DNA of 59,374 bases, the filler included. It is 5 parts of 5 records of this genome, joined end to end, with 100 filler letters (N's around TTAATTAATTAA, not from the genome) between each part and the next. Parts side by side here need not be neighbours in the genome. Positions count along the whole stretch, not along the records: positions 1 to 6,494 come from SRR22947727_3902; 4 more parts are not named here. The stretch is one strand, 5' to 3'. The notes beneath the pieces were generated by a model. It saw only the letters and a list, made by a program, of their open reading frames with translations. It made no database searches and was not told where the DNA came from. This document shows positions 1 through 59,374 of the stretch, piece after piece. The translations under genes and the position numbers were made by a program. The stretch's first letter is position 1. Each line of letters starts with the position of its first letter.

Positions 1-159
1 CGGGTGATCCAACCCTATTGGTTCGTGAAAGGTGGAGGTCATCTGAATGAAAAAGGCCCCGCCGAGCATCCCGATTGTCGCGTTGTGCATCCCGATCGAC
101 GCGCACAGTGTCCCGACCGGTGCGTGCAGTGTCCAAAAAAGAAGATCAAACCAGATCAC
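1..159 (-). CDS. Possible partial hydrophobic ORF running off the contig end
   Basis: GTG (157-159) overlaps the upstream TGA (GTGA). The frame is open to base 1: MIWFDLLFWTLHAPVGTLCASIGMHNATIGMLGGAFFIQ... Confidence 0.25.
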   Translation of the reverse strand, partial: MIWFDLLFWTLHAPVGTLCASIGMHNATIGMLGGAFFIQMTSTFHEPIGLDHP

Positions 160-1256
160 TCCTGCGGGCGACCTTTTCCTTTGCCACCCTTTCCTTTCAT
201 GCCCTTTTCGCGTCCTTGTCCGCCAACGTGATCAATTTTCCCGTCACCATCGCGATCTTCGCCGTATTCCATTTCATTTTCGAAGTGAATCCCTTCGCGA
301 CGCCCTGCGGACACATGGTCACCGTAGCTTTTACGAACCTCGGCCACCGCAAATCCTTCGTTTGCCTTTAAAAGCGCCGCTTTAATATCGTCGGCACTCG
401 CAGTTAAGGGAAACTCGTCGATCGCCCGTCCGGATTGGCCAAACTCGTCCGCATGAATAAGAACGATACTTGGTTTCGATGGCGATTTTTTGATCGAATC
501 CGCCCATTTTGCATCTTCCGCTGCGTCAGCAAAATCGAGATGAAACCTGCCAATCACGTCTTTATCCGCAAATACAGGCTTCAACGTCCCCTTCACTTTC
601 TCCTGATCTGTCGCTGGAGCAGAAACGAAAAGAAGCAACCGCTGGTCACCCGACGCGACGTTCAGCGCCTGGCGAAACGAATGAAAATCCTGCAACGTCA
701 TCTCATCTTCATTGCCTTTGGGCCGATACGATTTTGCAATCTTCTCCATCGATTCGACCACTCCCTCGGCGTTGGTGTTCCGACCCGCTCCCCGAGCTGA
801 CGCCAAGCCCTGATTGGGACTGCGACCAGTCCTGGAGAGTCGCTCTTCCGCATCGGGAGCGAGAATACAAAACGCAGTATTTTCAAAACGACCGTCTAAA
901 AACGTCCGAATCAAATCCTGATGCGCTAAGCTTTCATACGATTCAAGGCGAACACAAACAAACTTCCGGGACGCTTCAATAAACTCTTTTTTCGAGAACA
1001 AACTGTTCTGCGTATTGGTGTAACCGGGTCAGAACACGCCCGAAATACCGGAACACGTTGCGGCGGCTGCCATGAAAAAGATGGGGCGATTTGATCGAGC
1101 TGCTTCGGCTTTGGCCGTGTCCCACGTGGTATACCACATGATTCCGGCATCCCCGACGGGCTGAGAGCTCGCGCCAATGTCGATTGGCCGCGGTCCCTGC
1201 GCGAATGCAGCCGATGCTGCGAGCGCTAGCAATGATAAGGAGTATTTAATCTTCAT
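156..1256 (-). CDS. Putative secreted thioredoxin-fold selenoprotein, 366 aa, Sec (UGA) at codon 76
   Basis: ORFs 1029..1331 and 156..1001 are in the same frame, separated by one TGA (1029-1031) and 9 sense codons. Joined translation from ATG 1256: signal peptide MKIKYSLSLLALAASAAFA, then WYTTWDTAKAEAARSNRPIFFMAAAATCSGISGVF-U-PGYTNTQNSLFSKKEFIEASRKFVCVRL. This is a continuous thioredoxin-like pattern with U at the catalytic Cys position. Confidence 0.75.
993..1012 (-). promoter_or_regulatory. Candidate bacterial SECIS hairpin
   Basis: mRNA CG-C-AGAACA-GUU-UGUUCU-CG. The apical loop starts with G, 26 nt after the UGA. Confidence 0.55.
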
Positions 1257-1390
1257 ACCCGAACAAACCGGAAAGGCGGAAAATGGTTTCGCTAAATTTT
1301 GAAAAAACGCTTTTCGCAGCAACCTTTCCACCTCCAGAAAATCTCAAATCTCAGACTTTCCTTTCTGTAACTCGTTGCTAGACTTCGCGC

Positions 1391-3292
1391 GTGACATCCC
1401 CTGAAAAACGAAAAATCGCCTACCTGTATTCACGGTATCCTGTTGTTTCGCAGACCTTCTGCGATTCAGAAATGCTGGCGCTCGAGTCTCAGGATTTTGA
1501 TCTCGATATTGCATCGATCAATCCGCCGCCAAACCCGTTTCGGCACGAGCGATTTGATCAACTCGAAGCGGATGTGTTTTATCCACCGACCCCCTCGGTG
1601 TTGTCTCGATTAAAGGAGAAAGCGCAAGCTGACGGCACTTGGAAAAAGCACTTTGGCGATCTCATTGCCTGGCACAATTCGGAATACGGCCCGTCTTTCA
1701 AAGCTGAAATCCGCGCTCGAAACGCCCTCTACTTTGCTGAGATTTTCAAGAAGCGCGGGATTCAACATTTCCACGTTCATTTTGCGAACCGAGCCACGCA
1801 CACGGCGCTTTTCATCAAAAAATGGTCGGGAATTCCGTTCAGCTTTACCCCGCACGCTCAGGATTTCATGATCGATCTGGGAAGCGACGATCTCCTACGC
1901 GAAATGTGTCGCGAAGCAGAATTCGTGATCGGCGTGAGCGATTTCTCCAGCAATCTACTTCGCGAAACGTGCCCGGAATCAGCTGACAAAATCAGCCGAA
2001 TTTACAACGGAATCGACATGAGCCAATTCCCGCAGGCGCCGATTTCAAACACGGGTCCGTTTAGAATTGTATCAATCGGAAGGCTTATTGATTTCAAGGG
2101 ATTTAATCACCTCATCGCTGCGTGCGCTCAGTTGAAAGGACGCCAAATTCCATTTGAGCTCACGATCGTTGGCGAGGGCCCGCTTCGAGAAACGCTTGAA
2201 GCCCAAATTGCAGAACTCAATCTGACCGAAGAAATTAAACTCGCCGGAGTGATGAGCCAGGAGCAAGTTAAAGCAAAGTTGCAAAATTCGGACTGCTTTG
2301 CTCTCGCCTGCATCGTTGATTCCAAAGGTGCCAGCGACATTTTGCCCACGGTTATCACCGAAGCGATGGGCTGCCGATTGCCAATCGTTTCGACTCGTTT
2401 GGTCGGCGTTCCTGAAATGGTGGTTCACGAAAAAACCGGACTCCTCGTTGAACCCGGCGACGAAAAAGAACTCGCTGATGCGCTTGCCGTTTTGCATTAC
2501 GATCGCCGCAAAGCGCGCGCTTATGGACTTTACGGTCGCGAGCGTTCGGAATCGATTTTTGAACTGAAAATCACATCGAATCAACTCATCGAGAAATTTG
2601 AATCGGTCATGCCGGAACCGGCTGATATTCCTGAAAACCCACCGATTTTATTTCTCACTGATCAATTCCCTGTGTCGAGTTCAGCGAATCGTTGGGATCG
2701 CGAATCCGTTCTCGAAGAAGTCGCATATGCCGCCAGCAATCATGCCGATGTCATCGAAGTCATGGCGGCAACGTCAGCACGAAAAATCGATAAGAGAAAC
2801 ACATCTGCAGTTTTTCCCAACTGGGCTGGAGAAATCGAATTTTTCCCCGACGGACTCGTTTTAGAAGCTGAATGGGAAAACCAACCTGAGACCGTTAAGG
2901 AAATCCTCGATTTACGCGGCAAACTGGGATCCGGCATCGACACTGAATTCTTCTTTTCGCAGGCGCGGCGTGCCCTCCATCTTGCACGTGTTACGAAAAA
3001 ACGCGCCACGGCCCGCATTCACTCACTCCGAAGCGACAACGCAGTCTGTGCGTGGATCGTTCATCAATTGACCGGCTTGCCGTTCTCATTCTCGGCCGAG
3101 CCAAATTCGGAGGTCGGATCGAATACACTCGATAAAATATCCGAAGATGCTGTCGCGATTGATCCTCTCGATTTGCGCGAACCGAGTTCTGGCAAACGAC
3201 TGAAGATTGGCCACCTGAAATTAAAATTACCGGGAAAAGGAAATTTCCCAGACCGTTCCGAAGCGTTGGAAAAATGGTTTTCGAATCTGTAG
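1391..3292 (+). CDS. Glycosyltransferase family 4 (WcaL-like) with extra C-terminal domain
   Basis: YLYSRYPVVSQTF, HFHVHFA, SIGRLIDFKG and LPTVITEAMGCRLPIVST motifs. Confidence 0.85.
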   Translation: MTSPEKRKIAYLYSRYPVVSQTFCDSEMLALESQDFDLDIASINPPPNPFRHERFDQLEADVFYPPTPSVLSRLKEKAQADGTWKKHFGDLIAWHNSEYGPSFKAEIRARNALYFAEIFKKRGIQHFHVHFANRATHTALFIKKWSGIPFSFTPHAQDFMIDLGSDDLLREMCREAEFVIGVSDFSSNLLRETCPESADKISRIYNGIDMSQFPQAPISNTGPFRIVSIGRLIDFKGFNHLIAACAQLKGRQIPFELTIVGEGPLRETLEAQIAELNLTEEIKLAGVMSQEQVKAKLQNSDCFALACIVDSKGASDILPTVITEAMGCRLPIVSTRLVGVPEMVVHEKTGLLVEPGDEKELADALAVLHYDRRKARAYGLYGRERSESIFELKITSNQLIEKFESVMPEPADIPENPPILFLTDQFPVSSSANRWDRESVLEEVAYAASNHADVIEVMAATSARKIDKRNTSAVFPNWAGEIEFFPDGLVLEAEWENQPETVKEILDLRGKLGSGIDTEFFFSQARRALHLARVTKKRATARIHSLRSDNAVCAWIVHQLTGLPFSFSAEPNSEVGSNTLDKISEDAVAIDPLDLREPSSGKRLKIGHLKLKLPGKGNFPDRSEALEKWFSNL

Positions 3293-3416
3293 AGTTAAGG
3301 TTCGTCCCCACCATCTCTGTGACCTCGACAGCACCATTGTATCGCAAATTCCTAAATTTCAGCATTGCCAAGCCGCGCCTGACCCTGTTTCCTTGGCGGC
3401 GAGTTTGTCCGTTCAA

Positions 3417-4325
3417 ATGTCCGCCGATTCTTCAACCCAACCCGAGCCGAAACCCTCCAAGAAACAGGTGTTCGGCAGTCGCCTGATCAGCACACTTTGT
3501 TTGTGGGCTTTTTTCGTGATTGCCTTCTGGCTGGCGATCGATTGGCTCTTCTTCGCCATCGCCGGAGTCATCGTACTTCTCGGGCTATTTGAATATTTCA
3601 GCCTCTTTCCAATTATCGGATTTCGGCGATTTCAGTGGCAAACCTACGGCGTCACCATCGCCTACTTCGGGCTGCTATTCGCGCGACACTGGGGATTTGA
3701 GCCCGATTGGCTTGTTGATCTCGATAGCTTCGCCATCGCCGCGCTGGTTATCTGCGTAGTACTCGAACGGCTCCGCGCCCCCATCGAAGGTTTTCGAACG
3801 CTCGATGAAATTTCGGCGACCATCTTTGGATTCATCTACATTGTGATCCTCTTCGCCTTCGTTCCCAAAATCCTGCTGCTCGACGATTTGAAGGACACTG
3901 CAGGGAATTTTTCCGCTCACTTTTATGTTTTGTATCTGCTGATGGTGACGAAATTTACCGACATGGGTGCGTATGCAATTGGGTCGCTCATTGGTCGCGA
4001 TAAAATGGTTCCTCACGTTAGCCCGGCGAAAACCTGGCAGGGATTCGGCGGCGCAATCCTCTTCGCCTTCATTGCCAGTTTCGGAGCCTATTTTCTATTT
4101 GGAGATAAAATTCCGCTGATCACGCCGCTCCACGCATCGATCCTTGCGTTAGCCCTCGCACTCGTTGCGGTTCTCGGGGATTTGGCTGAATCGATTTTGA
4201 AACGCAGTCTCGAAGCCAAAGATTCCGGCCACAAAATGCCCGGCATCGGTGGCGTGCTTGATCTGATCGATTCCGTGCTTTTCACCGCTCCGATTTTGTA
4301 CGTTTATCTGCTGATAATTTCCTAA
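3417..4325 (+). CDS. cdsA: Phosphatidate cytidylyltransferase
   Basis: TDMGAYAIGSLIG, SPAKTWQG, GDLAESILKR...KDSG...PGIGGVLDLIDS signature; directly upstream of dxr. ATG 3417 chosen over the ORF-track TTG at 3393. Confidence 0.93.
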   Translation: MSADSSTQPEPKPSKKQVFGSRLISTLCLWAFFVIAFWLAIDWLFFAIAGVIVLLGLFEYFSLFPIIGFRRFQWQTYGVTIAYFGLLFARHWGFEPDWLVDLDSFAIAALVICVVLERLRAPIEGFRTLDEISATIFGFIYIVILFAFVPKILLLDDLKDTAGNFSAHFYVLYLLMVTKFTDMGAYAIGSLIGRDKMVPHVSPAKTWQGFGGAILFAFIASFGAYFLFGDKIPLITPLHASILALALALVAVLGDLAESILKRSLEAKDSGHKMPGIGGVLDLIDSVLFTAPILYVYLLIIS

Positions 4326-4331
4326 CTTTCT

Positions 4332-5498
4332 ATGTCCGATTCCCCTCCTCCGAAGAAACTCGTCATTCTCGGCTCCACCGGATCGATCGGTGAAAGTGCT
4401 CTCAAAGTCGCACGCGACATCCCAGAGCGGATGGAAGTGATCGGTCTCGCGGCAAATCGGAGCGCCAAACGACTCGCGGAGCAATGCGGTGAATTTTCGG
4501 TAAAAAACTGCTCTCTCACCGACGAATCCTGCGTCGGTGATTTGCGTGACGGACTTCCCAACAATGTAAAAACGGGAGTCGGCCCCGAAGGGATGATCGA
4601 GCTCGCGACCTTGCCAGAGGCTGACATGATTCTCATCGCGATTGTCGGAATCGACGGACTCCGCCCTGCTCTTGCCGCCATCGAAGCCGGAAAAGACATC
4701 GCGGTCGCCAGCAAAGAAATTCTCGTCATGGCTGGTGAAGCGGTCATGACTGCTGCCCGCGAAAAGGGCGTGAATGTTTTGCCGGTCGATTCCGAGCACA
4801 ACGCGATTTTCCAATGTCTCGAAGGTAAAAAATCCGAAGATGTTTCCCGGCTGATTCTAACCGCGTCCGGCGGCCCATTCCGCCAATCTCCTGCTGAGGA
4901 ACTGGCAGCAGTCACTCTTGAACAAGCCCTCAAACACCCGACATGGGAGATGGGCCGTAAAATCACGATCGATTCCGCGACGCTTTTCAACAAAGGCCTC
5001 GAAATGATCGAAGCCCGCTGGCTCTTCGACGTCGAAATGGATCGCGTCGACGTCATCGTTCACCCTCAGAGCATCGTTCACAGCATGGTGGAATTTATTG
5101 ATGGCTCGATTCTAGCCCAGCTCAGCACCCCTGATATGTGCTTTCCCATTCAATACGCGGTGACCTGGCCGGACCGCGTTCCCAACACCCTTGAACCTTT
5201 AGATTTCGCAGCCCTCGCCAAACTCGATTTCGAAAAGCCGCGATTTGATGATTTCCCCGCGCTCAACCTCGCCAAACGCGCTGGTCGCGAAGGCGGCACA
5301 CTCCCCGCCGTGATGAATGCCGCTAACGAAATCGCCGTGGCTGCTTTTCTTGAAAAATCGTTGGGATTTCCCCAAATTTGGGAAACCGTTAATCATGTGA
5401 TGGACGCACACCCTCAAAACCCGAAGCCAACGCTCGATGAAATTATCGCAGCCGACGCCTGGGCCCGAGATGAAGCAACATCGCTGCTTTCGAAATGA
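4332..5498 (+). CDS. dxr: 1-deoxy-D-xylulose 5-phosphate reductoisomerase
   Basis: LGSTGSIG, LPVDSEH, LTASGGPF, HPTWEMGRKITIDSATLFNKGLE. Confidence 0.98.
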   Translation: MSDSPPPKKLVILGSTGSIGESALKVARDIPERMEVIGLAANRSAKRLAEQCGEFSVKNCSLTDESCVGDLRDGLPNNVKTGVGPEGMIELATLPEADMILIAIVGIDGLRPALAAIEAGKDIAVASKEILVMAGEAVMTAAREKGVNVLPVDSEHNAIFQCLEGKKSEDVSRLILTASGGPFRQSPAEELAAVTLEQALKHPTWEMGRKITIDSATLFNKGLEMIEARWLFDVEMDRVDVIVHPQSIVHSMVEFIDGSILAQLSTPDMCFPIQYAVTWPDRVPNTLEPLDFAALAKLDFEKPRFDDFPALNLAKRAGREGGTLPAVMNAANEIAVAAFLEKSLGFPQIWETVNHVMDAHPQNPKPTLDEIIAADAWARDEATSLLSK

Positions 5499-6469
5499 GC
5501 ACTCCAAAATCTGCATCCCACACCGGCCCGGTTCGCATTGGCCTTGACCTTGGCGGCACTAAAATTCTCGCCAAGGTTTTCACCGAGAGCTACGAGACAC
5601 TCGGCAAAGCCAAAACAAAAACCGAAGGCCATCGCGGCGTAAAATCCGGTTTGAAACGGATGGTCCTCACCATTGAGGAAGCATTGGAGGAAGCTGGCGT
5701 ATCAGCCGACCAAATCACCAGTATTGGCGTTGGTTGCCCCGGCCCAGTGAATCCAAGAACCGGCGTCCTCATCGAAGCTCCCAATTTGGGATGGAAAAAC
5801 GTCCCGATCACCGAACATTTTAGCAAAGCCTTCGGCGGAGTCCCCACCGTGATTTGCAATGACGTCGACGCAGGTATTTACGCCGAATACGAAATGGGAG
5901 CTGGCAAAGGCTCCGATTGTGTTGTCGGAATTTTTCCCGGAACCGGTATCGGAGCAGGAGCCGTTGTCGGCGGTCAGCTGCTACAAGGTGCCAAACTTTC
6001 CTGCATGGAATTGGGCCACATCCCACTTGGACTTAATGGCTCATCCCTTGAAACGGAGTGCAGTCGCCTGAAAATTGCCATCGAATCCGCCCGCGCTGCG
6101 TATCGTGGTCTGGCCCCGCATTTGCTGAAAACCTGCGGGACCGATATTTCAAAAATCACCTCAGGAAAACTGGCTGACTCAATTGCAAATGGCGATCTGG
6201 CGATCAAGGAAATCGTCGTAACCGCAGCAAAAACCCTCGGAGTGGGCGTCGCGACTGTTGTTCACCTTCTCGCACCCGATAAGATCATTCTTGGCGGGGG
6301 ATTGGTCGAAGCATTGCCTGATCTCTTCGTTAAACACGTTCGAAAATCCGCCAACGCGCATCTCATTGAAACCTATCGCGACAGCTTCAAAATCGTCGCG
6401 GCAGAACTCGAAGACGACGCCGGCGTGATGGGGGCAGCCGCCTGGGCAGCCCGCAAATCGAGTCAATAG
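5495..6469 (+). CDS. ROK family sugar kinase
   Basis: GLDLGGTKI, GVGCPG, NDVDAG, GTGIGAG and ELGH motifs; no N-terminal HTH. Confidence 0.9.
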   Translation: MSTPKSASHTGPVRIGLDLGGTKILAKVFTESYETLGKAKTKTEGHRGVKSGLKRMVLTIEEALEEAGVSADQITSIGVGCPGPVNPRTGVLIEAPNLGWKNVPITEHFSKAFGGVPTVICNDVDAGIYAEYEMGAGKGSDCVVGIFPGTGIGAGAVVGGQLLQGAKLSCMELGHIPLGLNGSSLETECSRLKIAIESARAAYRGLAPHLLKTCGTDISKITSGKLADSIANGDLAIKEIVVTAAKTLGVGVATVVHLLAPDKIILGGGLVEALPDLFVKHVRKSANAHLIETYRDSFKIVAAELEDDAGVMGAAAWAARKSSQ

Positions 6470-6494
6470 GGTTGATTCATCGAACAGACCCTGT

Positions 6495-6594
6495 NNNNNN
6501 NNNNNNNNNNNNNNNNNNNNNNNNNNNNNNNNNNNNNNTTAATTAATTAANNNNNNNNNNNNNNNNNNNNNNNNNNNNNNNNNNNNNNNNNNNN
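6495..6594. other. Artificial contig spacer
   Basis: 44 N + TTAATTAATTAA (stops in all six frames) + 44 N. Confidence 0.99.
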
Positions 6595-6623
6595 CGTAGG
6601 TTCGAGTCCTACCGGGCCCACCA
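6595..6623 (+). tRNA. 3' end (T arm, acceptor strand, CCA) of a tRNA truncated by the contig start; isotype unresolved, Ile2-like
   Basis: GTAGG-TTCGAGT-CCTAC T arm followed by CGGGCCCACCA. Confidence 0.8.
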
Positions 6624-6670
6624 TCTAATATTTTTTTAAGTTATACTTCAAATTTCTTTGGGGATAATTA

Positions 6671-7975
6671 ATGCCAAATTTAATGAATGAATCTTTTACA
6701 TTGCCATGCGGACAGGTTATTAAAAATCGTGTTTGCAAAGCAGCAATGACTGAGCGTATTGCTAAAGGTAATAATTTAGCTCATCAAGGCCATGTAAATC
6801 TTTACGATAGGTGGGCAGAAGGCAATATAGGTATTCTGTTAACTGGAAATGTTCAGGTTGACCACAAAAACCTTGAGGGACCTGCAAATGTAGTGATTGA
6901 TCAGAATAACTATAAAGAGCAATTTGATGCTCTTAAAGCATGGTCAGCAGCAGGGACAAAAAATAATACACAGTTATGGATGCAAATCTCTCATGCTGGC
7001 AGGCAAACACCTGGTGAAATAAATTCTTCTCCCTTAGCTCCCTCAAATATTGGATTAAAAATACCTGGTAAGAATTATGGCTCTCCAACTCCAATGACAG
7101 AGGAAGATATTCTCGATGTAATAGACAGATATGTTTTTACCGCAAAAATTGCAAGAGAAACAGGGTTTACAGGTGTTCAATTTCATTCAGCTCACGGCTA
7201 TCTTTTATCGGAGTTTTTATCACCAGATATTAATAATAGAACTGATGCCTGGGGCGGCAGTCTTGAGAATAGAGCTAGGATTCATATAGAAATTATTAAT
7301 AAATGCAGAAAAGAAGTTGGTGAAGACTTTCCTATTTCAGTTAAATTAAATTCTACAGACTTCCAGAAAGGCGGGTTTACCTCTGATGAAAGTATTCAAG
7401 TAGCTCAAATGCTAGAAGATTCAGGTGTGGATATTATAGAAATTTCAGGTGGAACATACGAACAACCAAAACTCATAGGTGTGGATGATCTAACTATTAA
7501 CCCAAAAAGAAGTGAAGAAAGAAAAGAAAGCACAATTGCAAGAGAAGCTTATTTTCTTGAATATGCACAAGATATTAGAAAGGCGGTTTCCCTACCTCTT
7601 ATGGTCACAGGCGGTTTTAGAACTAAAGCAGGTATAGAGGATGCCTTGCAAAGTAATATTTGCCAAATGGTAGGCATTGGAAGACCTCTATGTGCAGATC
7701 CTTATTGCATCAAAAAAATGATAGCTGGCGAGATAGAAACATTACCAAGTTTTGAAAAGACTCTTTCATTAGGGCCCTCAATTTTTTCTCCATCAAGTCC
7801 ATTCACCATAATAAAAGTTATTAATGCATTTGGCGCAATGGCATGGTTTTATCAACAAATTAAAAATATGTCTAAAGGCCTAATGCCTAACCATGATCAG
7901 AAACTTTTTAATGCTTTTAGAGCCGATATGAAAGAAGATAAGTTGGCAATTAAAGATTATTTGAACAATAACTAA
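6671..7975 (+). CDS. NADH:flavin oxidoreductase (Old Yellow Enzyme family)
   Basis: KNRVCKAAMTE, QISHAGRQ, HSAHGYLLSEFLSP..NNRTDAWGGSLENRAR. Confidence 0.93.
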   Translation: MPNLMNESFTLPCGQVIKNRVCKAAMTERIAKGNNLAHQGHVNLYDRWAEGNIGILLTGNVQVDHKNLEGPANVVIDQNNYKEQFDALKAWSAAGTKNNTQLWMQISHAGRQTPGEINSSPLAPSNIGLKIPGKNYGSPTPMTEEDILDVIDRYVFTAKIARETGFTGVQFHSAHGYLLSEFLSPDINNRTDAWGGSLENRARIHIEIINKCRKEVGEDFPISVKLNSTDFQKGGFTSDESIQVAQMLEDSGVDIIEISGGTYEQPKLIGVDDLTINPKRSEERKESTIAREAYFLEYAQDIRKAVSLPLMVTGGFRTKAGIEDALQSNICQMVGIGRPLCADPYCIKKMIAGEIETLPSFEKTLSLGPSIFSPSSPFTIIKVINAFGAMAWFYQQIKNMSKGLMPNHDQKLFNAFRADMKEDKLAIKDYLNNN

Positions 7976-8299
7976 TTTTTATTTACTCAAGACTTTTATG
8001 ATTTTATATATGGACACTAAATCCATATTCTTTGATATGTTCTGCCATTCTCTTTCACGGCCACAAGTTCGAGTTTTGTGAATAAGTAAAATAGTTTTAG
8101 GGTTTGAAATTTCATTCCTTGTGTTAAAAGAAAATACTAAAAGCATTAATGTGTGTGCAAATGATTATAAGTAGGCATTTTTTTCATATATTTAGCTAAC
8201 AAGCTCAATGATTTTTTCCAATACTTAATCCTAAATATTCATTTATATTTTAACAACTTACAATTTTAAATTACTTATTTAGGTAGGATAAATTTTTGA

Positions 8300-8328
8300 T
8301 TTACAAAAATAAAAAAAAGGCGTAAATT
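8300..8328 (+). promoter_or_regulatory. Sigma70-like promoter for the GcvT-family gene
   Basis: TTTACA-N17-TAAATT. Confidence 0.45.
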
Positions 8329-8393
8329 TATTACAAATACTTCTTATTATATATAAAAAGAAGATATAAGTTATAAAGCACGGGAGAGCAAAT

Positions 8394-9698
8394 ATGACAA
8401 ATCCAAATCATCCTAACGTCGATCAAAGTGATCGTGTTGTTCCAGTAAATCTAAGACAAAGTGGCAGAACACCCACTGAGTTATTGATCTCTACTCGAGT
8501 AAGAAAATCACCTTTTTGGCATCTATCTCATGAGGCTGGCTGTTGGAGAGCAACTGTATACAACCGTATTTATCATCCAAGGGGTTATGTAAGGCCTGAG
8601 GATGGAGGTGCTATGGTTGAATATGAAGCCTTAGTAAATAGAGTTACCATGTGGAATGTTGCGGTTGAAAGACAAATAAGGGTTAAAGGCCCAGATGCAG
8701 AGGCGTTTACAGATTATGTAATAACTCGCGACGCAACAAAAATTGAACCAGGCAATGGCAAATATGCAATTTTGTGCAATGAAAAAGGAGGAGTTCTAAA
8801 TGACCCTGTCTTATTAAGATTAACAGAAGATGAGTTTTGGTTTTCTATCTCAGACAGCGATCTTTTACTTTGGTTACAAGGCGTAAATGTATCTAAGAAA
8901 TATGATGTTGAAATCGATGAAATCGATGTTTGTCCTGTTCAAATTCAAGGTCCTTTATCTGAAGATCTTATGGCAAAGTTAGCAGGCGAAGAGTTAAGAG
9001 AAGTTCCTTATTATGGAATCTTAGAAACTCAAGTTGGCGGAGCTGATTGTGTTATTAGTCAAACAGGATTCACAGGTGAAAAAGGTTATGAAATATATGT
9101 ACGTGACGCTCACGATAATGCAGAAAAAATGTGGAATGCTGTTCTTGAAGCAGGTGAAGAATTTGGTCTTATGGTTATAGCACCTGCACATCATAGAAGA
9201 ATAGCAGCTGGTATCTTATCTTGGGGACAAGATTTAGATCATGAAACTTCACCTTTTCAAGTGAATTTAAGCTATCAAGTGCCAAGAAACAAAGCTGCTG
9301 ATTATATTGGTAAAGTGGAGCTTGAAAAACAAAGAGCAATAATTGATGAAGGAAAAGCTCCATTTAAAATGAAAATGGTTGGTTTAACTCTTGGTGGCAA
9401 AGAGATTACTGATTATGCACCTGATTTTTGGATAGTAACCAATACGAGTGGTGATGAGGTTGGTTATGTTACATCTCCTTGGTGGTCGCCTGAGTTAGAG
9501 ACAAATATTGCTCTTGCCTGGGTCCCATGGGAGGCTTCAGAGGTTGGAACAGAATATATGGTCAAATTGCCTGATGAATATGCTGAATCACCAGGTGTGG
9601 CTGTTAATGCCAGGATTGTTGATGTTCCTTTTAGAGAATCAGTAAACCCTAACAAAAGAGAAGTTCAAGCAGCAAAAGGTCTAGACTTCGCTGACTAA
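8394..9698 (+). CDS. GcvT/DmdA-family THF-dependent aminomethyl-/methyltransferase
   Basis: QIRVKGPDA, GGVLNDPVLLRL, QIQGP, SQTGFTGEKGYEI, GYVTSPWWSP..IALA; GGGAG RBS. Confidence 0.88.
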   Translation: MTNPNHPNVDQSDRVVPVNLRQSGRTPTELLISTRVRKSPFWHLSHEAGCWRATVYNRIYHPRGYVRPEDGGAMVEYEALVNRVTMWNVAVERQIRVKGPDAEAFTDYVITRDATKIEPGNGKYAILCNEKGGVLNDPVLLRLTEDEFWFSISDSDLLLWLQGVNVSKKYDVEIDEIDVCPVQIQGPLSEDLMAKLAGEELREVPYYGILETQVGGADCVISQTGFTGEKGYEIYVRDAHDNAEKMWNAVLEAGEEFGLMVIAPAHHRRIAAGILSWGQDLDHETSPFQVNLSYQVPRNKAADYIGKVELEKQRAIIDEGKAPFKMKMVGLTLGGKEITDYAPDFWIVTNTSGDEVGYVTSPWWSPELETNIALAWVPWEASEVGTEYMVKLPDEYAESPGVAVNARIVDVPFRESVNPNKREVQAAKGLDFAD

Positions 9699-9708
9699 TA
9701 ATCGTTTT

Positions 9709-9742
9709 TAAAGAATTGGGTCTACCAAGGCTCAGTTCTTTA
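9709..9742 (+). terminator. Stem-loop, probable intrinsic terminator
   Basis: TAAAGAATTGGGTC-TACCAA-GGCTCAGTTCTTTA inverted repeat with G-U pairs, just after the stop codon. Confidence 0.6.
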
Positions 9743-9797
9743 TATTAATCTTAATAATATGTTTCATTTTAATATTCTGCTATGGCAGAATAAATTT

Positions 9798-9872
9798 ATG
9801 AAAATATTAATTCCAATCCTCATCTTAGTCTTCTTATATTCTTGCAATATTCCGTTAGTTCCTTTTATCTAA
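9798..9872 (+). CDS. 24-aa lipoprotein-like microprotein
   Basis: MKILIPILILVFLYSCNIPLVPFI: basic N-terminus, hydrophobic core and lipobox-like LYSC. Confidence 0.5.
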   Translation: MKILIPILILVFLYSCNIPLVPFI

Positions 9873-9886
9873 TTATGTAGAACCCA

Positions 9887-10996
9887 ATGTTCTTTGATCT
9901 AACTATAATTGGTGCTGGTGTTATTGGCCTATCAATTGCTAAATCCTGTTCTGAGCTTGGGATGTCAGTTGTAGTCCTTGAAAAAGATCCAAGAGCAGGT
10001 GAGGGAATCTCTTCAAGAAACTCTGGAGTTATTCATGCTGGTATTTATTATCCAAATGAATCATTAAAAACCAAATTTTGCATTTCAGGGAATAAACGTC
10101 TCTATGATTATGCAAAAATTAAAGGCATTAATCACAACAGAATGGGCAAATTCATAATAGCATCCTCAAAAGACGAGTTAGAAAAATTAGAGAGAATATA
10201 TGAAAAAGGTATTTCAAATTCTGTCACTTTAGACTTTTTGACTAAAAATAAAATGAAATTAATCTACCCTGATTTGAACATTGAAGCAGGAATTTACTCG
10301 CCAAGCACTGGAATTATTGACGTGCCAGAGCTTATTAGTGCTATTGAGGGAGACATACAGAATAATCATGGCCTCATATCATTTAATACTAAATTTATTG
10401 AAGCACAAAAAACTACCAGCGGCTTTGAAGTTTCATGCAATGATGGAAATAATTTTTTAATAAATACTAAATATTTTGTTAATGCGAGCGGTTTATATTC
10501 AGATTTAATTTCACAACAAATCGATGTTTTAGACAAAAAGCATTTTTCATCAATCAAATATGCCAAAGGGCATTATTTTAAATATACCGGCTCTCATCCA
10601 TTTAAAAATTTAATTTATCCACTAGCAAGTGAGTCATCTTCAGGACTCCATATTGGTTTTGATTTATCTGGGCAGATCAGATTTGGCCCAAACATTTCAT
10701 GGGTTGATGATATCGATTATTCTTTTGATGAGTCCCTAAAAGATAATTTTGTAGAAGCAATAAAAAAATATTGGCCTGATATTGAACCAAAAAAACTTCA
10801 ACCAGACTATGTTGGAATAAGGCCTAAGATACAGAACAGAAATGAGAAAATGAAAGATTTTTCCATTATGGGCCCTAAAGACCATGGTGTAGATGGGCTA
10901 ATCAATATTCAAGGAATAGAGAGTCCAGGAGTAACAAGTTGCTTAGCTATAGGTGAATATGTAAAACATATGATTAACTTAACAAATGATGTTTAA
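9887..10996 (+). CDS. FAD-dependent oxidoreductase, L-2-hydroxyglutarate oxidase (LhgO)-like
   Basis: IIGAGVIG, SSRNSGVIHAGIYY, KGHYF, YVGIRPK, GIESPGVTS. Confidence 0.88.
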   Translation: MFFDLTIIGAGVIGLSIAKSCSELGMSVVVLEKDPRAGEGISSRNSGVIHAGIYYPNESLKTKFCISGNKRLYDYAKIKGINHNRMGKFIIASSKDELEKLERIYEKGISNSVTLDFLTKNKMKLIYPDLNIEAGIYSPSTGIIDVPELISAIEGDIQNNHGLISFNTKFIEAQKTTSGFEVSCNDGNNFLINTKYFVNASGLYSDLISQQIDVLDKKHFSSIKYAKGHYFKYTGSHPFKNLIYPLASESSSGLHIGFDLSGQIRFGPNISWVDDIDYSFDESLKDNFVEAIKKYWPDIEPKKLQPDYVGIRPKIQNRNEKMKDFSIMGPKDHGVDGLINIQGIESPGVTSCLAIGEYVKHMINLTNDV

Positions 10997-11879
10997 GCTT
11001 AGCTTTGAATTGATCAAGTATTTCTTCTTCAATAAGATGTCGCATATTCCTAATAATAACTAAATCACTTTTTGGTATAAGTTGGTGCATATATCGTGAA
11101 TTTTCAGCTGACAATACAGGATCTTGTTCCCCATGAATGATTAAAGTTTTTGCCTGAATACTTTTAATTTTTTTAATTCTATTTTTTGATGAAAGTATCG
11201 CCATTAGCTGACGAGCATAACCAAAACCATCTTTCATATCCTTAATTCTATTGAAATTATTAATGGTATCTTCTTTAAATTTAGGCGTATCAATTTCCTT
11301 ACCTTCCATCCCTATTAACCCAACCCATTTTAATTCTCTTTCATACACCTCATCCATAGTGGGATTAGTACTTTTAGATCTGCTTACCATCATATCTCGA
11401 ACCTCTTTTGAGGCTCCATTGTGGGGGCCTGGTACAGAAGCAGTAGAAGCAATTAAAGTATATGTTTTGACTCTTTGTGGATATTTTGCGCATATTATTT
11501 GACTAATCATTCCTCCCATGGACGTGCCTAGAATATGAGCTTCATCAATATTAAGATGATTAAGAAGATTTATTCCATCTCGAGCCATATCATTAAGACT
11601 ATATTCAGGTTTTATTGGGAAACGAAAAAAATATCTTAAATATCCTAAGGTTATAGAGGGCTTATAAAAAAATCTTGAAGATAATCCTGAATCTCTATTA
11701 TCAAATGTTATAGGCCTGAGACCGTTTTTGATAAGAAATTTAATAAGATGTTCAGGCCAGTGTACTAATTGAGCGCCTAATCCATGAACTAAAAGAATAG
11801 GGGTTGCCTCTTCTGGCCCATAGTCCCTATAAAAAATTTTGACTCCATTATTTTCTGAATACCCTTCTTTATAACTCAT
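10974..11879 (-). CDS. Alpha/beta hydrolase
   Basis: LLVHGLGAQ, FDNRDSGLS, GTSMGG nucleophile elbow, IHGEQDP. Start taken at MSYKEG. Confidence 0.9.
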   Translation of the reverse strand: MSYKEGYSENNGVKIFYRDYGPEEATPILLVHGLGAQLVHWPEHLIKFLIKNGLRPITFDNRDSGLSSRFFYKPSITLGYLRYFFRFPIKPEYSLNDMARDGINLLNHLNIDEAHILGTSMGGMISQIICAKYPQRVKTYTLIASTASVPGPHNGASKEVRDMMVSRSKSTNPTMDEVYERELKWVGLIGMEGKEIDTPKFKEDTINNFNRIKDMKDGFGYARQLMAILSSKNRIKKIKSIQAKTLIIHGEQDPVLSAENSRYMHQLIPKSDLVIIRNMRHLIEEEILDQFKAKLKHHLLS

Positions 11880-11965
11880 AAGCTTAGTCTTACATATTTT
11901 AGAAATGCAATACACTGCTTTTTCATATACATTAGATCTTAAATAATAAATACTCTATTTTTTCT

Positions 11966-13336
11966 ATGTTTCAGTTTATAAATTTAATACATTTTATTAA
12001 AGCAAATAAAATAAGAGTAGCTTATGGCATTGGTGATTATGCTATCTGTCTTTATTGGAGTGGAGTTAGCTTATATCTTCTTTATTTTTATACAGATGTT
12101 ATAGGAATTTCACCACTGATGGCAGGTTGGATTTATGCTTTAGGTATAGCTTGGGATGCAGTAACAGATCCTTTTATGGGTTATATGGCTGAAAGAACTA
12201 GAAGTAAAATGGGAAGTTATAGGCCATATATCTATTACGGATCAATACCTTTAGCATTATCTTTTGTTTTACTTTTATGGATGCCACCATTTGAAGGAAT
12301 AATTTTATTTATATTTTTACTGGTAGTAAATTTATTTCATAGAACTTGTTTTACTATTGTAAGTGTTCCTTATTCTTCATTAACTGCAAGAATAACAGAT
12401 GATAGTGATGAGAGAACAAAGCTAACCACTGCAAGGATGCTTGCAGCATCTTTTGGAACATTTTCGATCTCAGCATTAGCATTTCCAATTGTTTTATTAT
12501 TTGGTGGTGGTGAAGAGTCCTTGGGCTTTATTTACCTTGGTCTTATAGCTGGTATTGCAGCAATTATAATACTTGGAATTACTGTATATTTTGTTCAAGA
12601 AAGGCCATTTGAATTTACTAAAGAAGAATTACCAAGTTTTTCCAAAGTCTTAAAATCAGTATCAAGCAATTACCCATTCTGGATAGTTTTTTCTGCAATT
12701 TTAATCTTGATATCCACATACTTGATGTTTAATAATAATTTAATTTATTTTTCTAAATATGCTTTGGGATTCCATGAATACCAAGGTTTAATTCTGGGGG
12801 TTATTAGTGGAAGCACTTTATTAGCAATTCCCTTGTGGGCATATCTAGCAATTAAATTGGGAAAAAAAAATACTTGGATGTTATCTATGACATCTTTATT
12901 TATTGGATTTTCTATTTTTTATTTATATCCAATTTCTGAACTTAGGGAATTGCTATATATTTTAAGCTTTATTGGTTTTGGCAATGGTGCAACTGGGGTT
13001 CTGTTTTGGTCAATGTTGCCGGATACCATTGAATATGGAGAATGGAAGACAGGTATTAGAACAGAATCGTCTCTTTATGGCTTTATGACGTTTGCTCAAA
13101 AAGGCGCTATAGCATTTGCTGCAGTTATATTAGGAATAATATTAACCAATATAGGCTTTGAACCAAATCAGGATCAAACATCAGAAACCTTAGTTTCTTT
13201 AAAAGCCTTGATGTCATTAATTCCTCTTATAGGTGTGTTGATTAGTTTAGCTCTTGTATATTTTTATCCAATTGACAGAAACTTCCATCAAAAATTAATA
13301 GAAGATATAGAAAGTAGAAAGATTAAAAATGCCTAA
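11966..13336 (+). CDS. MFS glycoside-pentoside-hexuronide:cation symporter
   Basis: YFYTDVIG, WDAVTDPFMG..RSKMGSYRPY, MLPDTIEYGEWKTGIR. Confidence 0.92.
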   Translation: MFQFINLIHFIKANKIRVAYGIGDYAICLYWSGVSLYLLYFYTDVIGISPLMAGWIYALGIAWDAVTDPFMGYMAERTRSKMGSYRPYIYYGSIPLALSFVLLLWMPPFEGIILFIFLLVVNLFHRTCFTIVSVPYSSLTARITDDSDERTKLTTARMLAASFGTFSISALAFPIVLLFGGGEESLGFIYLGLIAGIAAIIILGITVYFVQERPFEFTKEELPSFSKVLKSVSSNYPFWIVFSAILILISTYLMFNNNLIYFSKYALGFHEYQGLILGVISGSTLLAIPLWAYLAIKLGKKNTWMLSMTSLFIGFSIFYLYPISELRELLYILSFIGFGNGATGVLFWSMLPDTIEYGEWKTGIRTESSLYGFMTFAQKGAIAFAAVILGIILTNIGFEPNQDQTSETLVSLKALMSLIPLIGVLISLALVYFYPIDRNFHQKLIEDIESRKIKNA

Positions 13337-15332
13337 AATTAAATGGGGAATTATTGGAACTGGCTCTATAGCAAATGCGTTTGCTCATTCAATTAAGTAC
13401 TGTGATCACTCTGAATTAGTTTCAGTCTTTGGAAGAAATAAAGACACCACGGATGAATTCTCAAAGAAATTTAGTATAGACACGCACCTTGATATTGAAT
13501 CATTATTGTTATCAAGTGAAATCAATGCTGTTTATATTGCTACTCCTCATAACTCTCATTATGAATATATTTTTCAAGCTATAAAAAATAAGAAGCATAT
13601 TCTTTGTGAAAAGCCTATAACAATGAATCATATTGAAAGTATGGTTTTATTTGGTCTTGCTAAAGATGCTGAAGTTTTTTTGATGGAAGCTTATATGTAC
13701 AGAACCCACCCTCAAACGAAAAATATTCTTAATAGCATCGAGATACTTAGAAGATCAGAAGAAAAAATATCTATTAATTGCTCATTTGGTTTTAAGGCTG
13801 AAATACCAGAGGACCATAGATTAAGAAATCCTATGATGGGGGGAGGAGCCATTTTAGATGTAGGGTGTTATCCATTATCTATGACTAAGCTATTAGTAGG
13901 TCATATCCTAGACAAACCATATGCTGATCCTAGAAGTATTAAAGCATCAGGAGAGTTAGATATAACAGGTGTTGATTTAAATTCTTCAGCGCATATTATT
14001 TTTACTGATAACATTCAGGCCAATATTTCATGCGCCATAAATGAAGAGTATGAAAATAACTTAGAGATTATCAGTGGTGACTTTAAATTAGAGGTTAGCC
14101 AGCCATGGCATTGCGGTCAATTTCAAGAAGGCCTATCTTCTATAAAAGTTTATAACAAAAATAATCTTATTGAAGAAGTTGCATTTAAAGATGATGTGGG
14201 GCTTTTTACAAGAGAAATTGACCATGCATCAAAATGTATATTAGATGGTAACCTTGAATCAGAGCTAATCTCCCACAATGACTCTCAAAGCATTATGTTA
14301 TGGCTAGACAAATGGAGACAGGAGATAGGAGTAGTTTGTCCATACGAGTCAAAAGATATCTCGCCTATGGTTAAATCAAATTTTTCATCAATACAGAAAA
14401 GGAGCTTAAAAAGCATTTCAGTAGATGGTATTGATAAAAAATTTTCAAAACTTGCTCTTGGCTGTGACAACCAAACTTCAGATATTCATGCTTATGCTAT
14501 GTTTGATTATTTTTACGGAGCTGGTGGAAGAATTTTCGATACTGCCTATATTTATAATAATGGTTTGGGTGATAAGTATTTGGGTGATTGGATTAATTCA
14601 AGAAATCTTCAGAGTGATGTTGTTATTATTGGAAAGGGTGCCCACACTCCAGACTGTAAACCTGAGTTTATAAAGCCACAAATAGAAGAATCATTAGATC
14701 GATTACAACTCTCAAAAATAGATATATATTGTCTTCATAGGGATAATGCTGACATTCCAGTGTCAGAATTTATTGATGCTCTCAATGAGATAAAAACCGA
14801 GGGCTTGATAAATACTATCGGCGCATCTAATTGGGAATTAGATCGTTTCTCAAGTGCCAGGGATTATGCATTAAAGAATAATAAAGAACCTTTTTCTGTT
14901 TTAAGCAATAATTTTAGCCTTGCGCAGATGATTGAACCAGTTTGGCCTGGATGCGTTGCAGTTAGTAATGAGTTTTTAGACTACATCAACAAGAATGAAA
15001 TTAAATTATTTCCTTGGTCAAGTACAGCAAGAGGTTTTTTCATTAGAAAAAAAGAAATCGTAACCAAAGAACATTTCTCCAATCCCTCATTAGAGGAAGA
15101 AAAAAGAGTCTGGCATAGCAGAAAGAATCTAAAAAGAAGAGATATTTGTTTTGAAATTGCAGAAAAGAAAAATGTAGAGCCTATAGAGATAGCTATTGCT
15201 TATGTGGTTCATAGATCACCATTAATATTTCCATTAATAGGCCCAAGAACAGTAAATGAATTAAATAGCTCCATCTTTGGTTCACAAATAAATCTTTCAG
15301 AAGAAGACCTAAATAGACTATCTATAAATTGA
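13329..15332 (+). CDS. Gfo/Idh/MocA oxidoreductase fused to an aldo/keto reductase
   Basis: N-terminal WGIIGTGSIA, ATPH, CEKP, GGGAILDVGCY. C-terminal FDTAYIY, KGAH, IDIYCLHRD, GASNW, IGPR. Confidence 0.9.
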   Translation: MPKIKWGIIGTGSIANAFAHSIKYCDHSELVSVFGRNKDTTDEFSKKFSIDTHLDIESLLLSSEINAVYIATPHNSHYEYIFQAIKNKKHILCEKPITMNHIESMVLFGLAKDAEVFLMEAYMYRTHPQTKNILNSIEILRRSEEKISINCSFGFKAEIPEDHRLRNPMMGGGAILDVGCYPLSMTKLLVGHILDKPYADPRSIKASGELDITGVDLNSSAHIIFTDNIQANISCAINEEYENNLEIISGDFKLEVSQPWHCGQFQEGLSSIKVYNKNNLIEEVAFKDDVGLFTREIDHASKCILDGNLESELISHNDSQSIMLWLDKWRQEIGVVCPYESKDISPMVKSNFSSIQKRSLKSISVDGIDKKFSKLALGCDNQTSDIHAYAMFDYFYGAGGRIFDTAYIYNNGLGDKYLGDWINSRNLQSDVVIIGKGAHTPDCKPEFIKPQIEESLDRLQLSKIDIYCLHRDNADIPVSEFIDALNEIKTEGLINTIGASNWELDRFSSARDYALKNNKEPFSVLSNNFSLAQMIEPVWPGCVAVSNEFLDYINKNEIKLFPWSSTARGFFIRKKEIVTKEHFSNPSLEEEKRVWHSRKNLKRRDICFEIAEKKNVEPIEIAIAYVVHRSPLIFPLIGPRTVNELNSSIFGSQINLSEEDLNRLSIN

Positions 15333-17745: not shown

Positions 17746-17817
17746 GGTGGAATATTAAATGTTTAATATTAAATCCTCAATACACCTTTTCATTAAAATG
17801 CTGTTAGTATTGTCTTC

Positions 17818-18075
17818 ATGATAGAGAGAATAAAAAAATCAGTGATGCTTTTCAATGCTCCAATACAAAGAGTTTATGAGGCTAATAGAGGCACCATTAT
17901 TAGAACTATCATTTATACAATTGGTCACTTTATAATTGCCGCCTCATGCGTAATGTATTTTACTGGCGCAGACTTCTCTGCAGCTATAACAGATGCTATC
18001 GTTGAGCCACTTTTAAACAGTGTTTGGTATTTTGTTTTAGATAAATATTGGGCTAGCAAATACCCAAACAAATAA
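17818..18075 (+). CDS. Small membrane protein, DUF2061-like
   Basis: RTIIYTIGHFIIA..GA..A..VEP....WYF.LDK.W two-helix pattern. Confidence 0.65.
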   Translation: MIERIKKSVMLFNAPIQRVYEANRGTIIRTIIYTIGHFIIAASCVMYFTGADFSAAITDAIVEPLLNSVWYFVLDKYWASKYPNK

Positions 18076-18087
18076 AGAAAAAAATTC

Positions 18088-18116
18088 TTTACAAACATAT
18101 CATTACTGGTTAAATA
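18088..18116 (+). promoter_or_regulatory. Sigma70-like promoter upstream of the riboswitch
   Basis: TTTACA-N17-TAAATA; predicted start about 18122, immediately before the aptamer. Confidence 0.45.
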
Positions 18117-18122
18117 TATACA

Positions 18123-18173
18123 TATCGTGATTTGATCCTATTGCCGCGATGCAAAAAAAGAAGCTAAAACGGA
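18123..18173 (+). ncRNA. SAM-II riboswitch aptamer
   Basis: P1 UAUCG/CGAUG, conserved UGAUUU, UUGC pairing with GC(U)AA of GCUAAAA, and UCC/GGA; lies upstream of a homocysteine methyltransferase. Confidence 0.8.
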
Positions 18174-18240
18174 AGCAGCTCCCAGGGTTTAACTACGATT
18201 AAATTAATTAATAAGATATTCAAGTATTAAGGAGAGGATC

Positions 18241-18309
18241 ATGAAAAGAGGGTTAATAGAAAGATTGAATGAAGGCCCAGTAATTTGTGCTGAAGGTTTT
18301 TTATTTGAA
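18241..18309 (+). CDS. bhmT: Betaine-homocysteine S-methyltransferase, N-terminal fragment (contig end)
   Basis: MKRGLIERLNEGPVICAEGFLFE matches the BHMT N-terminus; AGGAGAGG RBS. Confidence 0.7.
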
Positions 18310-18409
18310 NNNNNNNNNNNNNNNNNNNNNNNNNNNNNNNNNNNNNNNNNNNNTTAATTAATTAANNNNNNNNNNNNNNNNNNNNNNNNNNNNNNNNNNN
18401 NNNNNNNNN
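18310..18409. other. Artificial contig spacer
   Basis: N44-TTAATTAATTAA-N44. Confidence 0.99.
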
Positions 18410-18625
18410 TTCTTTTAAAATAGGATAAGTACAAGGTTTATAAGCTCCCGCTCTGAAGGCATTTATACCTAATAATTTTATTTCTTTAGCAATATCTACT
18501 ATTTCAGGACCTTCAACAGAACACGGACCTGCTATTTTAGTATACTTCCATTCAAAGTTAATACTTTTATCTATTGAGATATTTAATTTACCCTGATTTT
18601 TTAATGATTTAATGTACTCGTTCAT
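18410..18625 (-). CDS. DAHP synthase I-beta/KDO8P synthase superfamily protein, N-terminal part (contig end)
   Basis: IAGPCSVE and FRAGAYKPCT motifs. Confidence 0.8.
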
Positions 18626-23883: not shown

Positions 23884-23983
23884 NNNNNNNNNNNNNNNNN
23901 NNNNNNNNNNNNNNNNNNNNNNNNNNNTTAATTAATTAANNNNNNNNNNNNNNNNNNNNNNNNNNNNNNNNNNNNNNNNNNNN
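23884..23983. other. Artificial contig spacer
   Basis: N44-TTAATTAATTAA-N44. Confidence 0.99.
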
Positions 23984-23985
23984 AG

Positions 23986-59373: not shown

Positions 59374-59374
59374 T

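Follow-up and report, generated by a model that had tools for sequence, protein, structure and literature searches.

An in-frame UGA conserved in Verrucomicrobiota and Planctomycetota points to a probably exported selenoprotein with two thioredoxin-like domains

A 2026 catalogue of prokaryotic selenoproteins holds 119 families and subfamilies (PMC13188914; cited throughout from excerpts, as are PMC2398784, PMC4807772 and PMC13462651). The only NCBIfam model touched by the protein described here is the Trx7/PDZ selenoprotein (NF041199), which has a Thioredoxin_7-like domain with selenocysteine (Sec) in a CxxU motif (PMC13188914) and whose GOS name is putative secreted serine protease MucD (PMC2398784). 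Other marine metagenome selenoprotein families of unassigned function are GOS_A, GOS_B and GOS_C, the last with a thioredoxin (Trx)-like fold (PMC2398784). The bacterial Sec insertion sequence (bSECIS; consensus model, E. coli fdhF type) lies inside the coding sequence just after the UGA, and the published model has a loop of 3-9 nt, a stem of 4-16 bp, a G in the first two loop positions, a spacing of 16-37 nt and a minimum free energy of −7.5 kcal/mol or lower (PMC13188914). Here we analyse a gene on the minus strand of a 59,374-nt stretch of DNA (hereafter the window), whose positions 1 to 6,494 come from record SRR22947727_3902. We read positions 156 to 1256 as a single gene for a 366-residue exported selenoprotein in which UGA codon 76 is recoded to Sec, and we put the probability of this reading at roughly 0.87.

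Compared with these families, the protein stands apart. Against NF041199 it scores 11.7 bits, where the cut-off is 300, and covers 64 of 390 profile positions; its motif is C-x7-U-P-G-Y and not CxxU, and Pfam matched no PDZ or protease part in the 366 residues. Neither GOS_B (NF041374) nor GOS_C (NF045500, UxxC) gave an NCBIfam match at E ≤ 1, and GOS_A, with 2 Sec and 155 Cys sequences (PMC2398784), is the opposite of the Sec-dominated family described below, from which it is set apart by these reported counts only. No fitting model was found in NCBIfam, including the Trx7/PDZ, GOS_B, GOS_C, VPGUxxT and deep-Sep families, and no fitting row for this motif or domain make-up is seen in Table 1 of PMC13188914. 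The literature searches turned up no description of such a protein, and among the papers listed for the carrier genera none contains the word 'selenoprotein'; supplements such as the S9 Table of PMC4807772, with candidates from two Planctomycetes, might name it. The recoding mechanism appears to be canonical; the family, its C-x7-U site and its build, which resembles protein disulfide isomerase (PDI), appear to be undescribed.

In order to establish the reading frame, the minus strand was read again from position 1256 to 156, which forms one frame. From the ATG at 1256-1254 the first 75 codons are all sense codons (MKIKYSLSLL...); an in-frame TGA follows as codon 76 (1031-1029), and the frame then reads P-G-Y-T-N-T-Q-N-S-L into an open reading frame (ORF) of 281 residues (156..1001) whose TTG 'start' (1001-999) is codon 86, a leucine, of the joined frame. 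The joined frame closes at the TGA at 158-156 and gives a product of 366 residues. The initial annotation had proposed a hidden secreted selenoprotein split into these two ORFs, and its frame and coordinates were correct. It had also pointed to the lack of an evident ribosome-binding site ahead of the TTG; by eye this is so, but it carries no weight as evidence, since the region before the ATG at 1256 also has no obvious Shine-Dalgarno sequence. A promoter scan found nothing. The features of the frame are as follows.

156..1256, minus strand: proposed full selenoprotein gene, 366 codons (159-1256) and a terminal TGA (156-158); tblastn matches cross the internal TGA
1197..1256, minus strand: predicted signal peptide of the Sec secretion type, residues 1-20, with a basic MKIK, a hydrophobic core and A-F-A before Q-G-P-R-P
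1029..1031, minus strand: in-frame TGA, codon 76, read here as Sec; TGA in 80/80 loci and the window, with Cys aligned in five homologues

Related loci were collected by an alignment-driven scan with one genome per species, in which at least 600 stretches matched. Of 600 stretches, 177 encoded relatives, from which the 80 best loci were retained. According to the record titles these comprise 47 loci from Verrucomicrobiota, 32 from Planctomycetota and one from an 'uncultured bacterium'. The Verrucomicrobiota carriers are Verrucomicrobiales, Akkermansiaceae, Roseibacillus, Rubritalea and Oceaniferula, and the Planctomycetota carriers are mostly Pirellulaceae with one Phycisphaeraceae; included are Oceaniferula spumae and Stieleria marina, both as complete genomes, and Rubritalea profundi. 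In most loci the tblastn matches run across the stop, from about residue 1 to about residue 343. The homologous codon is TGA in all 75 of the 80 loci that a strict motif could place, and in all 80 as well as the window when a looser motif was used; TAA, TAG or a sense codon was never seen there. The context is nearly frozen as well (R-P-I-F-F-M-A-A-A-x-x-C-x-G-[IV]-[SP]-G-V-F-TGA-P-G-Y-x-x-T-Q-N-[SG]-L-F). In contrast, the terminal stop of the same 80 genes varies (TAG in 29, TAA in 28, TGA in 22, and one off the contig end). Within the window, TGA terminates 15 of 49 Pfam-supported ORFs, which excludes a change of code, and together with the variable terminal stops this indicates that TGA is a normal stop in these genomes and that the TGA at codon 76 is under selection to stay TGA. 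The initial annotation had proposed looking for a TGA conserved together with both of its flanks, and this was found in 80 of 80 loci from two phyla; the contrary outcome that it had named, homologues as two separate genes with varied stops, was not, as the stop that varies is the terminal one. Elsewhere in the window, a ribosomal-protein/secY/adk/rpoA cluster (43529-52270, minus strand; L5, S8, L6, L18, S5, L15, SecY, Adk, S13, S11, RpoA and L17) is intact under translation table 11 and served as a control for the standard code.

We then asked what stands at the position of codon 76 in distant relatives. A HMMER search over 1.84 billion representative proteins returned 512 proteins at E ≤ 0.001, of which 282 were at E ≤ 1e-10 and 43 at E ≤ 1e-30. 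Among the 150 matches listed, six are full-length across the site, and five of these (P0130, P0145, P0179, P0180 and P0198) carry Cys at the Sec position within a C-x7-C motif, so that the upstream Cys is present too; in the sixth, P0149, both residues are lost (R...S). The Cys homologues that the initial annotation expected at the UGA site therefore exist, in five of six distant full-length proteins, with Ser in the remaining one. Since the two positions are either both present or both lost in full-length homologues, Cys68 and Sec76 may well cooperate, this pattern being the sole evidence for it here.

Public databases hold the family almost entirely in pieces. Queried with the joined sequence, a set of 5.8 billion clustered proteins yielded 496 relatives at E ≤ 0.001, and 119 of the 120 best listed relatives are the 3' part alone (235-317 residues, 61-77% of the query), which bears out the suggestion that standard gene callers miss the full gene. 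The 3' fragments printed nearly all begin at the same M/L-F-S-x-K-E-F, and six N-terminal fragments (P0197, P0207, P0212, P0226, P0237 and P0245) stop exactly at residue 75. When residues 21-110 were searched against the same protein set, one spanning protein, the Cys form P0130, was found among 28 candidates; full-length forms are therefore nearly absent from public protein sets. The family amounts to 512 representative clusters at 50% identity, nearly all of which are entered as shortened 'hypothetical proteins'. A distant subfamily (about 30% identity; P0183, P0189, P0201, P0202, P0256, P0175 and P0167) begins M-D-R-S-F-L-S..., with the start of P0167 six residues earlier than the rest, and is without the G-E-D-R-D-G-D-G loop described below. 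Its members start a few residues past the position equivalent to the Sec codon, and judging from this they may also be truncated at a recoded UGA.

To examine constraint at the RNA level, codons were aligned for 64 distinct full-length genes, and 79 sequences were compared for the hairpin. Synonymous codons are near saturation over most of the gene, as in the Ala, Gly and Arg columns, where 4-6 codons are in use. Downstream of the UGA they are almost fixed. Codons 82-85 are ACG in 60/63, CAG in 61/61, AAC in 61/61 and AGT in 48/48, and codons 86-88 are TTG or CTG only, TTC in 60/61, and TCG or TCA in 43 of 44 Ser codons with one TCT; codon 75, directly before the UGA, is TTC in 63/64. Normalised codon entropy in seven-codon windows has its minimum, 0.14, at codons 82-88 (mean 0.87, sd 0.11, n = 312), and the six columns with entropy below 0.25, among 175 eligible, are codons 75, 82, 83, 84, 85 and 87. 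The coding sequence is thus constrained as RNA at this place, where the following features lie.

993..1013, minus strand: codons 82-88 (ACG CAG AAC AGT TTG TTC TCG), with almost no synonymous variation
993..1012, minus strand: SECIS-like hairpin, an 8 bp stem with a one-base bulge and the apical loop G-U-U (1003-1001)

The hairpin occupies 17-36 nt after the UGA and holds the annotated TTG 'start' (1001-999) within it. For nearly all sequence variants, folding the 20-nt core gives this hairpin as the minimum-energy structure, and variants in which Ser is replaced by Ala (TCG to GCG) still fold as a hairpin with the bulged base shifted. Pairing is retained in 92.4% of cells across the 79 sequences, compared with 22-64% for slid partners. 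The apical loop lies 25 nt after the UGA and has G at loop position 1 or 2 in 79/79; including the closing pair, the loops are AGUUU (61), GGUCU (15), AGUCU (2) and AGGUU (1). With a loop of 3-5 nt, a stem of 8 bp, the loop G and the 25-nt spacing in all 79 sequences, the element agrees with the bSECIS model in its place inside the coding sequence, loop, spacing and stem, but differs from it in that its core has a median energy of −4.8 rather than −7.5 kcal/mol and in that no Rfam family was matched. In the window and the loci, a narrow form of the hairpin pattern, without the TTCGCG variant, occurred a single time in 59 sources, never twice, and was absent from the other 22. Taken together, these features suggest that the hairpin most likely acts as a bacterial SECIS.

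The predicted structure places the recoded residue at a catalytic position. The AlphaFold2 model of the full-length protein, built on a 42-row alignment, has a mean predicted local distance difference test score (pLDDT) of 90.5 and a predicted template modelling score (pTM) of 0.86. A signal-peptide helix (residues 3-17) is followed by domain 1, in which strand 59-63 leads into an inserted short hairpin (67-68 and 71-72) that carries C68, with residue 76 placed just ahead of helix 77-87; a linker modelled at low confidence (about residues 150-165) joins it to domain 2 (about 185-306), which has the order beta-alpha-beta/beta-beta-alpha and no Pfam family. Modelled alone, domain 1 gave a pLDDT of 85.5. 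The C-terminal tail is disordered in the model, and its length and sequence vary among homologues. Most homologues have a comparable N-terminus ending ...AQGPRP; the signal peptide probably takes the product out of the cytoplasm. The structural features are as follows.

1053..1055, minus strand: Cys68 codon TGT, proposed resolving partner of Sec76 (C-x7-U); Cys in 64/64 aligned full-length sequences
807..1145, minus strand: thioredoxin-like domain 1, about residues 38-150, carrying C68 and U76; from a Pfam trace, the model and Foldseek
339..704, minus strand: second thioredoxin-like domain, about residues 185-306, lacking both Cys and Sec at the active-site position; from the model and Foldseek
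231..263, minus strand: invariant acidic loop G-E-D-R-D-G-D-G-x-I-D, residues 332-342; from an alignment of 26 sequences
159..230, minus strand: low-complexity Gly/Lys/Arg-rich C-terminal tail, residues 343-366; variable among homologues, pLDDT below 65

Residue 76 thus lies at the N-terminus of helix 1, where thioredoxin folds carry their redox residue, and Foldseek gave a probability of 1.00 to many thioredoxins; the proposal of a thioredoxin domain with UGA at the catalytic Cys site holds in the model. Its likeness to W-C-x-x-C extends to the catalytic position but no further, as there is no U-x-x-C: the second position is Tyr (U-P-G-Y), CxxC, UxxC and CxxU motifs are absent, and the only nearby conserved Cys is at −8 (C-x7-U). 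The initial annotation is also to be corrected in that the protein has two thioredoxin-like domains and a conserved acidic D-x-D-x-D-G loop. In this loop G332, E333, D334, D336, D338, G339 and D342 are invariant in 26 sequences; we take it to resemble the D-x-D-x-D-G loops of EF-hands that bind Ca2+, and by this analogy it may bind Ca2+. Overall, the hidden selenoprotein split by a UGA is supported by the conserved TGA, the Sec/Cys pairing, an internal stop that does not vary and the thioredoxin fold.

Against structures in the Protein Data Bank (PDB), the best Foldseek matches of domain 1 were the Brucella Bab1_2064 DsbH-type domain, a DUF255-type domain from Methanosarcina, ERp19/TXNDC12, AGR2/AGR3, Chlamydia DsbH and DsbD-gamma (TMq 0.57-0.72, root-mean-square deviation 2.6-4.3 Å, probability 1.00, identity 10-23%). 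For DsbH-domain proteins, ERp19, AGR2 and Chlamydia DsbH, TMq was 0.61-0.72. DsbH-type, ERp19, AGR2 and DsbD-gamma proteins use CxxC or CxxS, and DsbH and DsbD-gamma are periplasmic. The present site differs in having Tyr at the second position, a Cys eight residues upstream in an inserted loop, and Sec as the proposed attacking residue. The whole model matched the QSOX1 Trx1-Trx2 fragment, calsequestrin, PDI, ERp44 and ERp57 with a probability of about 1, TM-scores of 0.19-0.35 and identities of 7-14%. In these tandem-Trx proteins, as in the model, a redox-type domain precedes a Trx-like domain that is redox-inactive, and the resemblance is one of architecture only; with TM-scores of just 0.19-0.35, the packing of the domains differs. 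PDI, QSOX1, ERp44 and calsequestrin are eukaryotic, and nothing here shows common descent. When PDB sequences were searched with a profile of the 42-row alignment, none matched at E ≤ 1.

Several results weigh against the assignment of a selenoprotein and have to be set beside the evidence above. The hairpin core is weak, none of the 79 sequences reaching −7.5 kcal/mol, although 43 of 79 do so when the 48 nt after the UGA are folded; the single-sequence folding z-score is 0.00, RNAalifold found no consensus structure for the 79 sequences, and there are no double compensatory changes in their hairpin pairs. Rfam gave no SECIS family in a whole-window gathering scan and no match at E ≤ 10 in 930-1080. 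Because the SECIS-like sequence is almost frozen across two phyla, covariation cannot be shown, and with weak energy and no covariation the structural claim relies on pairing potential and synonymous-site conservation. In the protein, the Pfam match to Thioredoxin_7 (PF13899; E = 0.0039, residues 41-113, across the Sec site) scores 17.7 bits, below the gathering score of 27. As for the machinery, selA, selB, selD and tRNA-Sec are all missing from the window, and tblastn with E. coli SelA, SelB and SelD found no match in the window and the 80 loci (668,605 nt), a null that is uninformative because only about 8 kb per genome was covered. A tRNA-Sec was seen in just one of the 80 loci (L026, from a metagenome-assembled genome [MAG] of Planctomycetota). 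There it lies at 2379-2471, 1.5 kb upstream of the family gene (ARAGORN; Rfam RF01852, 70.4 bits against a gathering score of 47), with a tyrosine-recombinase-like ORF (region 2067-3533) between it and the family gene (4001-5083), and it may serve as an integration site beside the selenoprotein gene. Full selA/selB/selD sets occur in some Planctomycetes, including a Rhodopirellula (PMC4807772). A comparable statement for Verrucomicrobiales was not found in the literature searched; the main texts of PMC5029168 and PMC5330540 do not mention these phyla, and PMC1794560 names Planctomycetes once, in passing. A scan of the window for other TGA-split genes yielded only antisense or implausible ORF pairs.

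We weighed three other explanations of the in-frame TGA. UGA 76 could be read through by a near-cognate tRNA, for Trp or Cys, with the help of the UGA-C context and the hairpin and with no Sec involved. UGA followed by C is a leaky termination context, and the base after the UGA is C in 79/79 sequences; the lack of visible Sec machinery in the window fits this explanation too, as does P0015, a 340-residue protein from a 1277-bp metagenome contig that is the only site-spanning entry among the 120 listed, has W at the site and so also counts against Sec. P0015, however, shares about 70% identity with Rhodopirellula-type loci, every one of which has TGA at the site, so that its W is probably a TGA translated by the gene caller under a Trp-reading code; metagenome callers tend to translate TGA under such a table. 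Homologues that replace the codon use Cys (5/6) and never Trp, and if Trp or Cys were meant there, TGG or TGY would be expected among 80 loci with otherwise saturated synonymous sites, where none is seen. The hairpin moreover fits the bSECIS rules for position and loop G, and a tRNA-Sec is present on one carrier contig. We consider simple read-through improbable.

The locus could also hold two genes, a 75-residue secreted peptide with a true UGA stop and a 281-residue protein starting from TTG 1001, and this is how public annotation renders it, with the 3' ORF alone in nearly all of the best listed relatives and six N-terminal ORFs ending at residue 75. Real stops vary, but this one is always TGA and always in frame, and the 9 codons between it and the supposed start are conserved as protein. 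Two genes would split the thioredoxin fold between strand 1 and helix 1, the Cys forms exist full-length as single ORFs, and the TTG Leu codon is CTG, which is not a usual bacterial start, in 17/64; this arrangement is very improbable. It is barely credible that the locus is a pseudogene, that the TGA stems from an error of sequencing or assembly, or that UGA has been reassigned throughout the lineage (tables 4 or 25). UGA-to-Trp reassignment is stated for some Verrucomicrobiota (PMC13462651), and abrupt switches of composition in the window could mean a composite assembly, but the same TGA recurs in 80 independent assemblies that include complete isolate genomes, TGA ends 15/49 Pfam-supported window ORFs and, where the terminal stop is reached, 22 of 79 family genes, and no composition switch comes closer than 5 kb to the gene. 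Recoding of UGA 76 to Sec in one gene is the reading that we carry forward.

If so, the hairpin would recruit SelB with Sec-tRNA(Sec), and Sec would be inserted at codon 76. The signal peptide would send the protein outside the cytoplasm, where the two thioredoxin-like domains would fold in a PDI-like 'a-b' arrangement. Sec76, standing where a CxxC thioredoxin has its attacking Cys, could attack a disulfide, sulfenate or peroxide of the substrate, and the invariant Cys68, located 8 residues upstream in the inserted loop, is its likely partner and would resolve the intermediate as a selenenylsulfide. Domain 2, which is redox-silent, would probably bind substrate, like the b-type domains of PDI. 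We infer SelB use, export, the C68-U76 redox pair and the class of substrate from sequence and model, and we regard the specific redox mechanism as an even bet. Flanking ORFs were clustered as well (604 ORFs from the 80 loci and the window); the gene's own two pieces aside, the commonest neighbour family occurs in 13 of 81 sources, and since none occurs in more, the neighbourhood offers no clue to function.

A quick maximum-likelihood tree built from 64 full-length rows places the window gene as sister to a gene from an uncultured Verrucomicrobiales MAG (L001; 86% identity, Shimodaira-Hasegawa-like approximate likelihood ratio test support 99). The two phyla are interleaved: 3 changes of label are needed, at least 2 of them forced by well-supported branches, and, for example, L026, L029 and L031 (Planctomycetota) cluster with L024 and L033 (Verrucomicrobiota). 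Old paralogy, transfer between phyla or binning errors may each account for this pattern. Two contigs of the same MAG (isolate ERP117304_co3_220), L006 and L038, both carry the gene with its in-frame TGA, at 64-65% and 57-58% identity to the window protein, and some genomes therefore hold two copies.

The window itself is heterogeneous. Its G+C content switches at 6480, at about 24000 and at 53750, each time within about 300 nt, from about 0.51-0.55 in 1-6480 and 24000-53700 to 0.24-0.40 in 6500-24000 and 53800-59374, and the stretch that continues the composition of the selenoprotein gene is limited to the first 6.5 kb. The switches could mark large foreign islands or a composite or chimeric assembly. 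An ORF for the alpha subunit of glycyl-tRNA synthetase (53805-54278, minus strand) covers profile positions 1-132 of 278 and ends at the composition switch; its truncation at the junction favours the view that unrelated sequences were joined there. The only tRNA gene of the window, a tRNA-Arg (ACG; 23986-24062, minus strand), lies exactly at the boundary between low and 0.50 G+C, which is either a classic insertion site of an island or conserved sequence at which assemblies join. The region 18609-23509 (minus strand, 0.28 G+C) has matches to CTP_transf_3 (a CMP-sugar-type cytidylyltransferase) and 2-hydroxyacid dehydrogenase, as well as family-29 sialyltransferase-like and TOD1/MUCI70 glycosyltransferase-like matches, both of which families are unusual in bacteria; by its gene content it looks like a surface-glycan island.

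With regard to the family as a whole, we lean slightly towards the view that it is an undescribed one, almost always in the Sec form and maybe confined to the Planctomycetes-Verrucomicrobia-Chlamydiae (PVC) bacteria, consisting of exported PDI-like two-domain oxidoreductases with a C-x7-U-P-G-Y site and a nearly unchanged SECIS, and with the distant M-D-R-S-F-L-S subfamily seemingly cut at the same place. Searches seeded with Cys forms are the main route by which selenoproteins are discovered (PMC13188914), and the near absence of close Cys forms, which would hamper such searches, would explain why the family has been missed so far; this is a blind spot of discovery for any family that is nearly always in the Sec form. 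If confirmed, a widespread family would join the roughly 119 known, and hundreds of truncated database entries would be corrected. Its active site, with Sec at helix 1, Tyr in place of the second Cys and a partner Cys in a loop, would be a natural experiment on selenenylsulfide chemistry. Among marine PVC bacteria the protein would rank with the commoner selenoproteins, and confirmation would mean that free-living marine Verrucomicrobiales and Pirellulaceae spend selenium on an exported redox protein, which bears on the demand for trace elements in the ocean.

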